A stretch of 63,959 bases of DNA, filler included, from Theionarchaea archaeon (GCA_018992565.1; 6 parts of 6 records of this genome joined end to end with filler, not necessarily neighbours in it), one strand, 5' to 3'. Counted from the whole stretch's first letter, positions 30,001 through 36,000 are shown. Made by a program: the numbers.

Positions 30001-33000
30001 GTGTTATACCAGGGATCATTCCTGGATTTACACCCCATCCTGTTCACTGTCCCCGGATTCGTCGGTGCTATCGTGTACTTTGTGGGGTATGTAGCCCAGC
30101 TGAATGACTATCCATTCACCATTGCCAAGGCAAAGGGAGACCTCGTTGAAGGTGCACCTTTAGAGTACGGTGCACATGCCAGAGGGAACTACTACATACT
30201 GCGTGGCGTGTGGATGTTCGTGCTGTCAAGCCTGTTTGTGACGTTATTCTTTGGAATACCGCCTGTCGTGGACTTTTCCAGCATGGTGGGCGTGTCACAG
30301 CTGGTTATGCACGTGCTCCTGACCTTCATGCTGCCAGTTCTGGTATCAGTCCTGTCTGCCTTCGGCCCGATACTGACCTTCAAACAGCTGTATCCAGTGT
30401 CCTTTGGATTCACAGCCATCGGTGTGTTTGGGCTGTTACTGGCCCTGTAGGTGATACTGTGTGTAAATTCATCTTACCCTCAAAAAAGGTGCAGAATATG
30501 GGTGGGTACATTGTGGAGAACCACTCTGAGTTCCCCTTCAGGGACTTAATAGTGGGAAACCCTACCAATGAAAACGTCAAGCTACCTGTACCCATATACA
30601 CCATGGAAGAAGTAGAACAGATCAAGAACCTGGGTATCGTCACGTACGAGATGCAGGCTGGAGAATCCCTGGTGGAAGCGCTTCAGAAAGTGAAGGACAA
30701 GATTGGCAAGGAACCCAAGAGATCGAACTACTGGTAATTATTCTTCTTCTTTTTTTCTTTTAGCAGTATCAGGAACTGGACGTGAGGAGGGCCTTTTCTT
30801 CAGATCCTTTATAACAATGGTATTATGCCTACTGGACAATGTCGTGGAAGAGGAATTGCCTATATACTATTTTCCACGAATGTGAAAAAAAATCCAGGAT
30901 GCTCTCTCTCAGTGTACTAGAGTGCTACATATATGGGGCAATATTGTATTTTCTCGTAAAACGAAAAGTTTATATACCTAGAAAACACATACTTTTCAAA
31001 GTGGAACTTGAGATGTTGTATTGTTTTGACATAAAGCGAAATCTTAGGGAGATGAAGAGATGACCGTGGAAGTGACCTCTATCGGCGATCATGTCAGTAT
31101 AGACGATGATGCCACTCATTTATTGTTCAATACAGCTGATTCAGGATTGTATAGAATAGAACTCATTACCAGAAAACTTTTGGTTCTCATACATGACTAT
31201 GGCATAGAAGCTGCTCGGTCACTCATAAAGGAAGACGATATTGAAAACGTGGCGGAAGAGAAACTTTCAGAACTTAAAGAGAACAAGTTCCTGGACCCAC
31301 TTCCAGAATTTGTTCCCCAGGAGACATCTCCCATCATGTTTGCGTCTCTCAACGTGTCTCATGACTGCAACCTCAACTGCCGCTACTGTTATGGAGGGGG
31401 CGGAACCTATGCAGGAGACCCCTGTCACATGAGTACGGACGTGGGAGAACTGGCTGTTGATCGGCTCTTCGAGTGGTGTGATGATAGCGAACTTCTGGGT
31501 ATCAATTTCTTTGGAGGAGAACCCCTCCTGAACGTGAAATTGATACAGCATCTGGTGTCCTATGCAACTGAAAGAGCACATGCTGAAGAGAAAAAAGTGC
31601 GATTCAGCATGACATCCAATGGCACTCTTTTCACTGACGAGATAGTCGCGTTCCTCAAGGAGAGTAATATAGGAGTGCTGGTGAGCATGGATGGGCCAAA
31701 GCACGTCCAGGATGTCAACCGCCCCTTCAGAAATGGTAAGGGGTCATATGATGTCATTGCAGACCGACTTCAATCCCTCCTGGCTGTCAGGCCTCACCTG
31801 ACTGCCCGTGCAACCCTGACCAAAGATTGTATGTCTCTCAGTACGCTGGTTGATGGGCTCAGAGACGTGGGGTTCACCTATGTACATGTAGAGCCTTTGA
31901 CTCCTTATGAGAACTGCCCATTTGCACTTTCTGAGGAGGATTTTGAAACCCTCAAGGATGAATATGATAAGCTCGGGCATATATTCCTGGAAAATATCCT
32001 GAATGGGACCCCCTTTGGATTCTCAAATATTCTGAGGACCCTGAGTGCTATATACACCTCCGGGGTTCGTCACTATCCATGCGGTGCAGGGAAGAACCTC
32101 ATGGCAGTTGATCCCATGGGTGGAATCTATATATGCCACCGGTTTGTGGGAATGGAAGACTTCTCCATGGGTACCCTGAACGATCCCGATTTTTCTATTC
32201 AAAAGAGACTCCTCCAGGCCCATGTAGATGCGCGAGATGAGTGCAGGAACTGCTGGGCCAGGCACTTATGTGCAGGGAGTTGCTGGTACGATAATTATGT
32301 GTACAGTGGTGCTATTGACAGACCACACAGCCCGAGATGCAGTCTTTTCAAGCATATTGCTGCACTTTCCATGGTTATATTTTCAAAATTACATGAAAAA
32401 GATAAGGCATTACTGGATAAGATGTTCCGGAAGCATGAACCGTCATACAGACGTGGTGAATTTCCGGAGGATGAGAGAACGTGAAGGAGGTGATACCACG
32501 ATACGATTAAATGGAACAAGTGAGCCCCAGCCACCCACGTGCCCGGATGACTACATATGTCCATGGGTTGATATCTGCACTATTGACTTCGACCCCTGTG
32601 CATTTATTGACATCTGCGGAATTGACTACCACTAGACTATTTTTTTTCTTGAATAGTACACAAGGTACAGAGAGGGAGGTGATATGATGATACGATTGAA
32701 TGAAGGAGTGGAAGAAGGAGGCATACATATCTGCCTGATAGACTACGTGCACTGCGATAATATTGATATCTGCATAGTCAAAGACTATGCTGCGCTTGGC
32801 TAGGATTGATCCATGATGTGGCGATCCATCCAGTCAGCACGCGAGGCATGGTATGTCTGGCGAATCCCCGGGTGCTCTTGAACAGGGGTACCGGGAATCA
32901 CGGGATCCAGTGAAGGTCACTTTTATTTTCTTGAACATGCGAATCCTACAGAAACCAGGACGAGAAAATTGAAGGAGGTGATATCACGATACGCTTAAAC

Positions 33001-36000
33001 GGAACAAGTGAACCCCAGCCACCCACGTGCCCAGATGACTACATATGTCCATGGGTTGATATCTGCACTATTGACTTCGACCCCTGTGCATTTATTGACA
33101 TCTGTGGAATTGACTACCACTAGACAATTTCTTTTCATTTTTATTTTTTNNNNNNNNNNNNNNNNNNNNNNNNNNNNNNNNNNNNNNNNNNNNNNNNNNN
33201 NNNNNNNNNNNNNNNNNNNNNNNNNNNNNNNNNNNNNNNNNNNNNNNNNGATCTTGAGCTACCCAAAAGTATTTAAGTTCTTGTTCACATGGGAGCGTAC
33301 AAACTCCTCAAGGAGGTGAAAGAATTGAAAGGTAGAGAAGTGACAATACTAGCATTGATACTGATGCTTTGTATGAGCATTCCCGCAGCTTTTTCTGAGA
33401 ACGACAATTTCGGTGTAGACTACAAGTTCACACCTGTCCTGACAGGTGGCATGTGTAGCGGATGTGGTACCTACTTGATTGAGGATACCCAGATCTATTC
33501 TGCTCCAGGAGAACCTCTGGTTCCCTACAGAACTGCCTCGATTCTGTTGCCACAGGGTGCAGAGTTGAAAGATGTCAAGGTTAAGCATGGCAAGCCCATT
33601 GTTATGAAGGGCTATGACCTGCCGTGGGGTCAACCCCCCTGCACATTCAGCGATACCCCAGTAACAGTTGGCAGAAATGAAGAGACGTACAATTCCAACA
33701 GTTTGTACCCCCAGACACTCTTTAAGGTGGTTGGTGTTGAATCTTTCAGAGGATACAGCATTCTGAACCTGCTCCTGTTCCCTGTGCAGTACCAGCCAAA
33801 GTCTGGCACGGTCCACTTCTATCAGAAGTTGACTGTTGAGGTCCAGTTTGGCAAGGGTATGAAGAACAAGCTGTACAGAGGATTGGAGGAAGACAAGGCA
33901 GCTGTTGCTGATATTGTAGATAACATTGACACATTGAATACCTATGAGAGTGGACCAACACCTCTGGCAACTGAAGAATACATCATCATCACCAACGACA
34001 CGCTGGAGTCTACATTCCAGAGTCTGGCAACCTGGAAGGCAGGCTTCGTTGACGGAGCTTCAGTGTATACCGTGTCCTGGATCTCATCAAACTACACTGG
34101 TACTGACACCCAGATGAAGATTCGTAACTTCATCATTGACAAGTACACCAACAATGGTACGCTGTATGTCTTACTTGGTGGTGATACTGGCGTTGTCCCC
34201 TACAGAGGATTCTACGTCAGCACAGGTGGATATACTGACAGCGACATGGCAGCAGACATGTATTATGCTCACCTGGATGGCAGTCACAACTCAGATGGTG
34301 ACTCCCGGTATGGTGAGACTAATGATGGTGTCGACTTCTATGCAGAGGTTGCAGTCGGCCGTGCACCTGTGGACAACACAACAGAAGCCCAGTCGTTCGT
34401 CAACAAGGTCATCGCCTATGAGCAGATGGACAAGCCAGAGAGAGTCTGCCTGCATGAGTCTCGCGTGGGCAGTAACAACAGTCCTGATGCCCGATGCCTG
34501 GCATACAACTGTGATAACTACATCCCCACTGGGTATACCATCGACTACCTGTTCGAAGAAGATGGTAATGTCTCAAAGGCTGACTGGAGAGCAGCATGGG
34601 CAGCTGGTCCTATTGCCGTCGTCCACATTGGACACGGGAACACGACTGTCTACTACATCAACTATGAAGTGGGCGGTACTGTGAGCTGGTATACCACAGA
34701 TGTATCCAGTTTGACCAACACGTTCTACCCATGGACAACCAGTGTGGCCTGTATCTGTGGTGAATTTGAGGCTTCTGACTGTCTGTCTGAATACTACGTC
34801 AAGGATGACTGTGGAGCTATTGGTGCCATCTACAACGACAACTACGGCTGGTTCATGACGACTGATGCCTGTGCATTGAGTGGTGAATTCTGTGAGATGG
34901 AAGTCAGAGCATGCTGGAGCGATGGTTACGAGAAGCTGGGTGACATTCTGAACAGGTCACGATACTACATGGCATCCTCAGCTCAGAGTGATACCTACTA
35001 CAGGTGGTGCTTCTATGAGAGAAACCTCATGGGTGATCCAGAAACCCCCTGTCTGACCAAGAGAGGAGAACAGCATACAGTGACCATCACCAACCCAGCC
35101 GATGGATCAACTGTCTCTGGAACTGTCAGCGTTACCACAAGCACCAACTGCGATGAAGTGAAGTTCTACATCGATGGTNNNNNNNNNNNNNNNNNNNNNN
35201 NNNNNNNNNNNNNNNNNNNNNNNNNNNNNNNNNNNNNNNNNNNNNNNNNNNNNNNNNNNNNNNNNNNNNNNNNNNNNNCTGGGACACCACTGGATACTCC
35301 AACGGCAGCCACACCATCATGGTTGAGGGATACGTGTCTGGTACGTTACAGGACACTGACTCTGTTACTGTCACAGTCAACAATGTCAGTTACTATGTGA
35401 CCATCACCAACCCAGCCGATGGATCAACTGTCTCTGGAACTGTCAGCGTTACCACAAGCACCAACTGCGATGAAGTGAAGTTCTACATCGATGGTACGTT
35501 AGTGAAGGATGATACATCATCACCCTTTGACTACACCTGGGACACCACTGGATACTCCAACGGCAGCCACACCATCATGGTTGAGGGATACGTGTCTGGT
35601 ACGTTACAGGACACTGACTCTGTTACTGTCACAGTGCAGAACCTCGCGTACTACCTTACCATCACCAACCCCTCAGAGGGTGAAGTTGTATCCGGTACTG
35701 TTACAGTAACGACGGATACCAACTGCAGTGAGGTACGGTTCTACATTGATGGTTCGCTTGTAGGAACTGACACTACAGCACCCTTCCAGTACAGCTGGAA
35801 CACCGAGAACTATTCTGACGGTAACCACACTGTAAGGGCTGATGGATACGTGTCAGGTACAATGGAAGCCCAGGACACAGTCACCTGTGAAGTTGACAAT
35901 GGTGGAGAGTGTCTCGGAACTACGCTCGTTTCCTTGCTGGTATTGTTTGGATCTGCAGCATTGTATAGAAGACGCTAAATTCCTTTTTTTTCCTTTTTTT

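Follow-up and report, generated by a model that had tools for sequence, protein, structure and literature searches.

A candidate ranthipeptide-type locus with Cys-acid precursor peptides and putative ACG start codons in a theionarchaeon and its archaeal relatives

A locus of Theionarchaea archaeon (GCA_018992565.1), found in a 63,959-nucleotide stretch of DNA analysed as a whole (hereafter the window), encodes a radical-SAM/SPASM peptide maturase followed by three small precursor frames. We consider it a probable ranthipeptide-type RiPP gene cluster, in which Cys-to-acid thioethers would be formed by the mechanism proposed below. Judging by sequence, it belongs to a real, as yet unnamed ranthipeptide-type family with an enzyme clade, a leader and a strict rule of Cys-acid spacing that are all its own, and the locus and its archaeal relatives probably make small multi-ring thioether peptides. 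An earlier note on this DNA had proposed a PapB-like ranthipeptide locus. The maturase-plus-precursor locus is genuine and the rule of an acid at +3 or +4 after Cys extends across the family, but the closeness of the enzyme to PapB does not hold up.

The maturase ORF and the three small frames described in the earlier note are all present in the sequence, and all genes and sites given here lie on the + strand. The maturase gene (31060..32484) encodes 474 aa. Precursor 1 is taken here as 45 codons from an ACG at 32498 (32498..32635, stop codon 32633-32635, 5 Cys), within a small frame that could also be opened from an alternative in-frame ATG (32471-32635); its Shine-Dalgarno site, GGAGGTGAT (32486..32494), overlaps the region of the maturase stop codon. 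The run of eight T (32640..32647) right behind precursor 1 could act as an oligo-T terminator of the archaeal kind, or else belong to the precursor 2 promoter region. A scan with bacterial-type promoter and terminator models, which are unsuited to archaea, found no excess over shuffles. Precursor 2 (32684..32803, 39 codons from the first ATG, 3 Cys) follows another copy of the Shine-Dalgarno site (32675..32683), and its second ATG, at 32687, has the usual 3-nt distance from that site. Precursor 3 (32986..33123, 45 residues from ACG 32986), in a small frame spanning 32968-33123 and with the same site upstream (32974..32982), encodes a peptide identical to precursor 1. A 100-N scaffold gap follows (33150..33249). 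The locus neighbours a hydrogenase operon and a C25 peptidase, the latter downstream of the gap; the peptidase was dropped as a candidate leader peptidase because it is absent from the conserved content of related loci.

As had been claimed, every Cys of the three precursors is followed by Asp at +3 or +4 (5/5 in copy 1, 3/3 in copy 2 and 5/5 in copy 3). Taken alone, this motif is only modestly significant: in whole-peptide shuffles copy 1 has p = 8e-4 and copy 2 has p = 5e-3, and these values become 4e-3 and 0.017, respectively, when only the core is shuffled (200,000 shuffles in each case). Among all stop-to-stop frames of the 2.8-Mb assembly, with Cys counted in the last 60 residues, only copies 1 and 3 have at least five Cys that all carry D/E at +3/+4, and six further segments genome-wide have four of four.

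The earlier worry that the peptides lack orthologs is lifted by one metagenome ortholog locus (L018), six called metagenome peptides and eight Thermococcus loci, which together form our family sample (the count of eight leaves out a ninth match, G122). Cys-acid peptides lie right downstream of the maturase in L018, where the enzyme is 62% identical to that of the window, likewise in L019, and in all eight fetched Thermococcus loci, where it is 36-37% identical; the adjacency of enzyme and peptides is kept over enzyme identities of 36-83%. Typically, the maturase gene is followed by those of two peptides and then of an ABC-2 exporter; the order maturase, peptides, DrrA-like ABC ATPase and ABC-2 membrane proteins occurs in L018 and in 3/3 enlarged Thermococcus regions. 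No ABC-2 exporter genes were seen in the window, and they could lie inside the gap 33150-33249 or beyond it; with the proteins of L018 and L002 (G004) as queries, no exporter ortholog was found in the 88%-complete genome (best match 42% identity). The family ranges from sediment Theionarchaea/Methanofastidiosia-like organisms to cultured, hyperthermophilic Thermococcus. In public annotation its enzymes are given only as 'radical SAM protein', and its peptides are 'hypothetical protein' or missed.

L018 was the only ortholog-level match among the 80 of 560 relatives kept from a metagenome scan with the enzyme alignment, and the only close one of five loci from a genome scan was an incomplete copy in G004. 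The window enzyme as query found no maturase ortholog in genomes of the same genus and family (G001-G003; best E 9.6e-49, 31% identity), and no such peptide was seen in the distant relatives L003 and L004, whose enzymes are 31% identical. A word-based protein search with the peptide profile returned two proteins, both already known family finds; the ESM Atlas gave no usable match, and three long repetitive proteins that match the profile (P0126, P0127 and P0129) were set aside. A literature search limited to non-subscription journals found no paper on the family or on ACG starts in archaea.

Across 25 distinct family peptides, 128 of 144 Cys have D/E at +3/+4, and in 119 of these the acid is Asp. 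Core shuffles give a mean of 48.4 (sd 5.3, maximum 72) and none of 20,000 attains 128, although the kinship of the peptides makes them non-independent samples, so the test overstates significance. For 47% of family Cys there is an Asp at +3, and for 37% there is one at +4. Of the 16 Cys that miss the rule, ten are followed by Asp at +2 or +5, one of these ten also by Asn at +4, and three others by Asn at +4 or +5. In 24/25 peptides an acid stands between +2 and +5 from the final Cys, and the peptides stop 3-10 residues past that Cys. The leader is 14-17 residues long with a short conserved N-terminal x-R-L-N, and the core outside the Cys-acid motif is freely variable. No NCBIfam or Pfam model, the freyrasin-like model NF037957 included, matches any of 10 clade peptides at E <= 1, and NF037957 matches none of the three window frames at E <= 0.01.

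The maturase combines an N-terminal leader-binding (RRE-like) domain at about residues 1-95, a radical-SAM motif CX3CX2C (C103/C107/C110) and seven SPASM cysteines (C341, C359, C395, C398, C404, C408 and C427), and all ten Cys are invariant across 14 clade members. Its Pfam matches are Radical_SAM and Fer4_12, and its closest solved structure is CteB (5wgg, E 2.1e-63). It thus has the CX3CX2C motif, full seven-Cys SPASM domain and CteB relationship that characterize the ranthipeptide class. The NCBIfam scores given previously were reproduced. The top four matches are all thioether-forming maturases, and all fall under their curated cut-offs: nif11-like peptide maturase (TIGR04064, 309.2 bits, cut-off 518.7), QhpD (TIGR03906, 297 bits, cut-off 453, alignment residues 12-456), PapB (NF047865, 296.4 bits, cut-off 340, model positions 6-330 of 330) and SCIFF maturase (TIGR03974, 294.6 bits, cut-off 425). 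No SCIFF-type peptide was found within the window.

The PapB score had been read as a sign of special closeness. True SCIFF maturases, which score 792 and 701 bits on the SCIFF model, reach 287 and 276 bits on the PapB model, and 296 bits is therefore background for this enzyme group; a real PapB-family enzyme, L095, scores 380.5 bits. On these sequence comparisons, 'PapB-like' is not a specific label for the window maturase. A quick tree, whose deep branches are short, places the enzyme in its own 14-member clade apart from the PapB-like rows L095 and L089. A split with 95% SH-aLRT puts this clade on the SCIFF side and the PapB-like, QhpD and Thermococcus enzymes on the opposite side, and joining the window clade with the Thermococcus clade is not rejected by an AU test (p = 0.21).

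Given that the family score of the enzyme is unspecific, the prediction of a Cys-to-Asp thioether rests on the substrate motif. We propose that each precursor docks with its short, conserved N-terminal x-R-L-N leader on the N-terminal domain of the maturase. With SAM, the radical-SAM cluster and two SPASM auxiliary clusters, the enzyme would then join the sulfur of each core Cys to a carbon of the acid at +3/+4, by analogy with PapB to the C-beta of Asp or the C-gamma of Glu. Precursors 1 and 3 would thereby each gain up to five small in-line rings in a row, and precursor 2 would gain three. The ABC-2 transporter adjacent in related loci probably exports the product or shields the producer.

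The first of these steps has a structural model behind it. The predicted maturase-precursor complex has an ipSAE of 0.81, against 0.51 for the best control, with contact agreement among runs of at least 23% and partner pLDDT of at least 36; the mark applied to such models is attained by 116/157 solved complexes and 2/215 mismatched pairs. The confident contacts link peptide residues 1-6, the conserved leader, with enzyme residues 21, 28-34 and 37, among which L21, S28, G29, L30, Y31 and T37 are invariant in the clade and E34 is nearly so. The peptide core is modelled at low confidence, and the passing score may stem from resemblance to the solved complex of CteB with its leader. As a model, it supports binding of leader residues 1-6 by enzyme residues 21-37.

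Several features of the sequence around ACG make this codon the most likely start of translation for precursors 1 and 3. The homolog P0123, 80% identical to precursor 1, has Met exactly at the ACG 32498 codon (precursor 2 is related to P0130 and P0128), and five of six called homologs have Met at the start codon, the sixth having Leu. All four precursors without ATG at the start position (precursors 1 and 3 of the window and both precursors of L018) have ACG there, and the preceding codon varies. Genome-wide, 3 nt is the commonest distance from the nine-base Shine-Dalgarno site to the start (10 of the 19 such 9-mers that open an ORF of at least 80 aa), and both ACG codons of the window have this distance from a perfect site. 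Elsewhere in the genome an ATT stands at equal distance before the apparently conserved N-terminus of a putative carboxylase. We also considered that a +1 frameshift might fuse precursor 1 to the maturase, but gave up this idea since the same Shine-Dalgarno/ACG layout occurs, without a maturase upstream, in copy 3 and in the second peptide of L018. The ACG start might possibly restrain precursor synthesis relative to the maturase. That clade precursors start at a conserved, selected near-cognate ACG, and that their products are the first small multi-ring Cys-Asp thioether peptides of Archaea, is a tentative proposal that could go either way.

The peptides may be maturase substrates and still carry another cross-link: Cys might form a sactionine (S to C-alpha) or be tied to the hydrophobic residue that usually stands before Asp, and Asp would then serve only in recognition or spacing. 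We regard this as unlikely, even though the position of the enzyme among thioether synthases is ambiguous in the tree and AU test, every curated family cut-off is missed, and the two residues right after Cys show biases as well, +1 towards G/I/L and +2 towards I/L/V. CteB, the nearest solved enzyme, makes non-alpha links. The acid, moreover, is the most conserved partner at its +3 and +4 positions, and it is swapped almost only for Glu or Asn, acceptors of known ranthipeptide enzymes (for Glu, PMC9413430). It is highly improbable that these are unmodified metal-binding or redox peptides and that the radical-SAM enzyme has another target. Such a role would suit an organism rich in Fe-S proteins, with at least 40 radical-SAM/SPASM paralogs, and Cys and Asp are both metal ligands; however, enzyme and peptides stay tightly adjacent over the full 36-83% range of enzyme identity, and the conserved leader is predicted to dock on the invariant N-terminal strand of the enzyme. 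RiPP precursors typically have a fixed leader and a hypervariable core, and the family peptides follow this pattern.

Other doubts attach to the duplicated copies. Copies 1 and 3 could be untranslated relics that leave precursor 2 as the sole working gene, given that both are without ATG, GTG or TTG where homologs start and that copy 3 has none anywhere in its frame. This appears quite improbable, as both copies retain the intact motif in 5/5 Cys and the perfect 9-nt Shine-Dalgarno site at the usual distance, the same ACG recurs in both precursors of L018, another organism, and the possible ATT start before the putative carboxylase offers a parallel in this genome. Counted from the putative ACG start, five differences separate copies 1 and 3, all synonymous and none non-synonymous (P = 3.6e-4 under random placing of differences), a sequence pattern indicative of purifying selection on the duplicated precursor. 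The earlier note had also feared an assembly duplicate, and copy 3 is indeed 95-96% identical to copy 1 and ends 27 bases ahead of the 100-N gap. That explanation is now barely conceivable. The duplicated blocks share 160/169 bases, with nine differences, their flanks are unrelated, and contigs of 456-477 nt from runs X1, X3 and X15 of three studies (covering 32587/32608-33063) join the tail of copy 1 to copy 3 by way of copy 2, with no more than one deviating letter. No contigs were found across the gap itself, and loose ends on both sides go on into unlike sequence.

To our knowledge, small thioether peptides made by radical-SAM enzymes are known almost only from bacteria. The putative ACG starts would explain why gene callers overlook these precursors and, if confirmed, would clearly exemplify non-canonical initiation in Archaea. 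With cultured Thermococcus members in the family, the proposed ranthipeptide-type pathway is genetically testable, and its products should be heat-stable. PapB-type enzymes serve as peptide-stapling tools, and a thermophilic relative that accepts both spacings could be useful.

How does the family compare with known systems? QhpD, which makes Cys-to-Asp/Glu thioethers on QhpC in the maturation of quinohemoprotein amine dehydrogenase, is a related SPASM enzyme and the second best NCBIfam match, but the score is under the cut-off, the window has no QhpA or QhpC-like neighbours, and true QhpC-type peptides were seen only in other loci (L020, L026 and L027). The SCIFF/CteB system (thermocellin) shares the RRE, radical-SAM and SPASM architecture and a short Cys-rich precursor. 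Unlike the window locus, it has the precursor upstream of the maturase and a different conserved core (L022 and L028), and the window enzyme falls well short of the SCIFF cut-off. The acceptor in thermocellin is Thr, and that of NxxcB is Asn. CefA/CefB (Cys-every-fifth RiPP, NF038108/NF038107) share with the family a short precursor in which Cys are regularly spaced. A weak match (22.3 bits, cut-off 30) comes from one Thermococcus peptide; the window peptides are unmatched, and the window enzyme has 100 bits on the enzyme model (cut-off 600). In Methanococcus voltae, the archaeal SPASM enzyme CrpC is reported to form ranthionine links on CrpA, whose C-X-X-Q/D motifs are repeated (PMC13692751). 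Unlike the window precursors, CrpA is a large protein, and the survey left out peptides < 100 aa (PMC13692751). The window enzyme has 84.9 bits on the CrpC family model (TIGR04463, cut-off 525).

From PapB and PapA (freyrasin, Paenibacillus polymyxa; NF047865 and NF037957), the family differs in an enzyme that scores below the PapB cut-off and forms a separate clade, in peptides unmatched by the freyrasin-like model, in a very short leader and in an archaeal host. Freyrasin is uniformly CX3D, in contrast to the mix of +3 and +4 in the family; set against freyrasin-type cores, every Cys has a downstream Asp and the spacing alternates between 2 and 3 intervening residues. PapB forms its Cys links within Cys-Xn-Asp motifs, with Asp or Glu as the acceptor, and accepts n = 0-6 in vitro (PMC9413430). 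What the two systems have in common is a radical-SAM/SPASM maturase and, in PapA as in the family precursors, a row of in-line Cys-Xn-Asp units, each Cys paired with an acid further on and Glu occasionally in place of Asp.

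A maturase gene encoding 474 amino acids (31060-32484, + strand; Pfam Radical_SAM and Fer4_12 domains) is followed by three short frames on the same strand, whose ORF reading ends at 32635, 32803 and 33123. The four top NCBIfam matches of the enzyme are all thioether-forming peptide maturases, none reaching its cut-off (nif11-type, 309.2 bits against 518.7; QhpD, 297 against 453; PapB, 296.4 against 340; SCIFF, 294.6 against 425), and these values reproduce those of the earlier note. Across an alignment of 14 clade members, the radical-SAM CX3CX2C cysteines (C103, C107, C110) and seven SPASM cysteines (C341, C359, C395, C398, C404, C408, C427) are invariant, and the nearest solved structure is CteB (5wgg, E 2.1e-63). 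The upstream neighbor, ending 320 nt before the maturase gene, is an unrelated Mrp/Mbh-type membrane-bound [NiFe] hydrogenase operon (23155-30737, +) encoding MnhE/G/B-like subunits, an antiporter-like subunit, a ferredoxin, the small and large hydrogenase subunits, a NuoH-like subunit and an EhbP-like protein. A 100-N gap (33150-33249) lies 3' of the last short frame. Beyond it, one or more large secreted proteins with a C25-type peptidase (33289-37040, +, including a second 100-N gap at 35179-35278) feature a C25 propeptide and catalytic domain, Big_7 Ig-like domains and RHS repeats; they have no conserved place beside the maturase in related loci.

The short frames encode putative precursors 1 (32498-32635), 2 (32684-32803) and 3 (32986-33123), of which 1 and 3 specify the same 45-residue peptide. 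As had been claimed for them, every Cys is followed by Asp at +3 or +4 (5/5 in peptides 1 and 3, 3/3 in peptide 2). For peptides 1 and 2, the pattern has p = 8e-4 and 5e-3 under whole-peptide shuffling, and 4e-3 and 0.017 when only the core is shuffled. Taken alone, without the family, the motif in the window peptides is suggestive rather than compelling. Across the 2.8-Mb assembly, the copy-1 and copy-3 segments are the only stop-to-stop frames with at least five Cys that all obey the rule, and six further segments have four out of four. We also noted T-rich runs with a similar short motif after precursor 1 (32640-32647) and before precursor 3 (32916-32927). These could serve as terminators of the archaeal type or as promoter elements, in which case each precursor would have its own transcript.

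Is the third copy an assembly duplicate, as the earlier note feared? The duplicated block is identical at 160 of 169 bases. The flanks of the two copies are unrelated, and in three public sequencing runs (X1, X3 and X15), each from a different study, single contigs of 456-477 nt lead from the copy-1 tail across copy 2 and into copy 3 with at most one other letter, ending only within a 71-nt stretch that copies 1 and 3 share exactly. From the proposed start onward the copies differ at five positions, all synonymous (P = 3.6e-4 for differences placed at random among 27.7 synonymous and 107.3 non-synonymous sites). These observations contradict a duplicate; given the bridging contigs and the synonymous-only differences, the third copy is real and under selection. 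The gap that follows copy 3 is bridged by no contig of the public runs.

A large protein search returned 13 full-length relatives that share 60-83% of the maturase's residues (P0002-P0014), plus five shorter ones (55-72%), after which the next best falls to 39%. One close relative is labeled Theionarchaea and one member of another cluster Methanofastidiosia. Of 133 genomes searched in the class of the window's organism, an ortholog is present in only one other, G004. A more distant enzyme of 36-37% identity, publicly annotated merely as 'radical SAM protein', is encoded by nine genomes of one family; the public names of these nine are those of Thermococcus species. With the maturase as query, no ortholog was found in the three genomes of the window's own family. 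The window's genome and two of the same genus (G001 and G002) each have at least 40 radical-SAM/SPASM matches, whereas the count is 1-4 for 30 of the order's 31 remaining genomes; the genus has an unusually large set of predicted maturases of this type, often in tandem. Close to another such gene of the window's genome (C128:9221-10207), a small minus-strand frame ending near 10878 carries a 9-residue Cys-containing unit four times in its tail, and is possibly the precursor of a different RiPP.

The metagenome locus L018 (enzyme 62% identical), the sole ortholog locus with DNA examined, has two small frames straight after the maturase. Both peptides share the leader x-R-L-N; Asp or Glu follows at +3/+4 after 5/5 Cys in one and 4/6 in the other, where the two misses have Asp at +5 and Asn at +4, respectively. 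A profile of five peptides, searched against 1.84 billion representatives, gave 10 matches at E <= 0.001: three long repetitive proteins and seven short peptides of the same design, including P0123, which is 80% identical to peptide 1. The relative P0003 is an enzyme 82% identical to the window maturase. Such peptides occur just 3' of the enzyme in all eight Thermococcus loci fetched (two in seven loci, one in the eighth), with the leader F-[KR]-[KR]-L-[NTG]. No such peptide was found at two loci with more distant, 31% identical enzymes (L003 and L004). On the metagenome contig L019, a peptide with a different leader (2211-2369, +) has Asp/Glu at +3/+4 after 4/4 Cys and a C-terminal unit resembling that of window peptide 1; the maturase there is 35% identical, and its best model is nif11-type (341 bits, under cut-off). 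The Cys-acid design may reach beyond the Thermococci.

Across 25 distinct peptides (copy 3 was dropped as identical to copy 1), Asp or Glu stands at +3/+4 after 128 of 144 Cys, with Asp accounting for 119 of the 128. Shuffled cores gave a mean of 48.4 (sd 5.3, maximum 72) and reached 128 in none of 20,000 trials, figures that overstate independence as the peptides are mutually related. At +3 the residue is Asp in 47% of cases, and at +4 in 37%. Among the 16 misses, Asp occurs instead at +2 or +5 in ten (one of which also has Asn at +4), and Asn at +4 or +5 in three of the rest. In 24 of 25 peptides an acid follows the final Cys, with the peptide ending soon after. The remaining core positions vary freely.

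Each precursor is preceded by GGAGGTGAT. Of the 60 genomic sites of this 9-mer, 19 lead into a canonical start that opens an ORF of at least 80 aa, and in 10 of the 19 this start lies 3 nt away. The codon 3 nt past the 9-mer is ATG in peptide 2, and it is ACG in the other two window peptides as well as in both peptides of L018. The codon before ACG differs in all four, called homologs start at this position with Met in five of six cases (Leu in the sixth), and the sole difference between copies 1 and 3 that would alter a residue sits just before ACG. For copy 3 and one L018 peptide, no canonical start was found anywhere in frame. The best reading, which we hold to be somewhat more likely than not, is that these four precursors start at ACG; if true, this explains why gene callers missed the precursor genes. 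A literature search of open-access article texts found no account of ACG starts in archaea. On C14 near 8377 (+), C147 near 13506 (-) and C91 near 18001 (+), the same 9-mer has ATT 3 nt on, leading into long frames that lack a canonical start in their vicinity. The start of the C14 frame resembles the conserved N-terminal part of a biotin-carboxylase-type enzyme, and this organism may make wider use of near-cognate starts.

In L018 and in all three enlarged Thermococcus regions, genes for a DrrA-like ABC ATPase and for ABC-2 membrane proteins adjoin the peptides. No ortholog-level exporter was found in the window's genome, where it may be hidden by the 100-N gap. In G004 (99% complete, same order), the maturase part is 57% identical over residues 5-356, stops at residue 356 and continues in frame into an ABC-transporter ATPase to which it is fused at a shared G-A-G-K stretch (L002 1495-3345, on G004:C2; also P0019 and L013). 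With the SPASM domain and peptides missing, the G004 locus looks like a decayed one, or like a deletion between maturase and exporter.

What might the enzyme make? PapB is reported (PMC9413430) to connect Cys with Asp in Cys-Xn-Asp units, n = 0-6 being tolerated, and to use the analogous carbon when Glu takes the place of Asp. This activity matches the family's substrate pattern closely and, by this analogy, in-line Cys-to-Asp thioether rings are the most likely product: five would form in peptides 1 and 3, and three in peptide 2. A model of peptide and enzyme, with SAM and three clusters included, scored 0.81 against 0.51 for the best control; of 157 solved complexes 116 attained that mark, as did 2 of 215 mismatched pairs. 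Contact agreement between runs was at least 23% and partner pLDDT at least 36. Confident contacts join peptide residues 1-6 to enzyme residues 21, 28-34, 37, 68, 71, 75, 331-334, 441-442 and 445, several of them invariant in the clade, and the core is placed without confidence. The model supports predicted binding of the peptide to the maturase, although the pass may partly reflect likeness to the CteB-leader complex, because that complex has already been solved.

The earlier note singled out the maturase as the genome's radical-SAM/SPASM enzyme nearest to a characterized family, PapB. On the PapB model, two true SCIFF maturases reach 287 and 276 bits, compared with 380.5 for a true PapB-family enzyme, so the 296.4 bits of the window enzyme are background, and it is not specifically PapB-like. 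A quick maximum-likelihood tree (54 rows) sets the 14-row clade of the window enzyme apart (100% SH-aLRT); across a 95% split with short branches, the Thermococcus clade lies together with the PapB-like, L019 and QhpD rows. Joining the window and Thermococcus clades is not rejected by an AU test (p = 0.21). None of 10 clade peptides matches Pfam or NCBIfam, freyrasin-like model included, at E <= 1, and the same literature search found no description of this Cys-acid peptide family. The comparison gives good support to what would be a new, mostly archaeal family inside the ranthipeptide class. Its nearest known systems are PapB/freyrasin, with the same substrate logic, QhpD/QhpC, the SCIFF enzymes and archaeal CrpC/CrpA. 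For the last, a 2026 report (PMC13692751) describes ranthionine links on a large protein containing C-X-X-Q/D repeats, from a survey that left out peptides of <100 aa.
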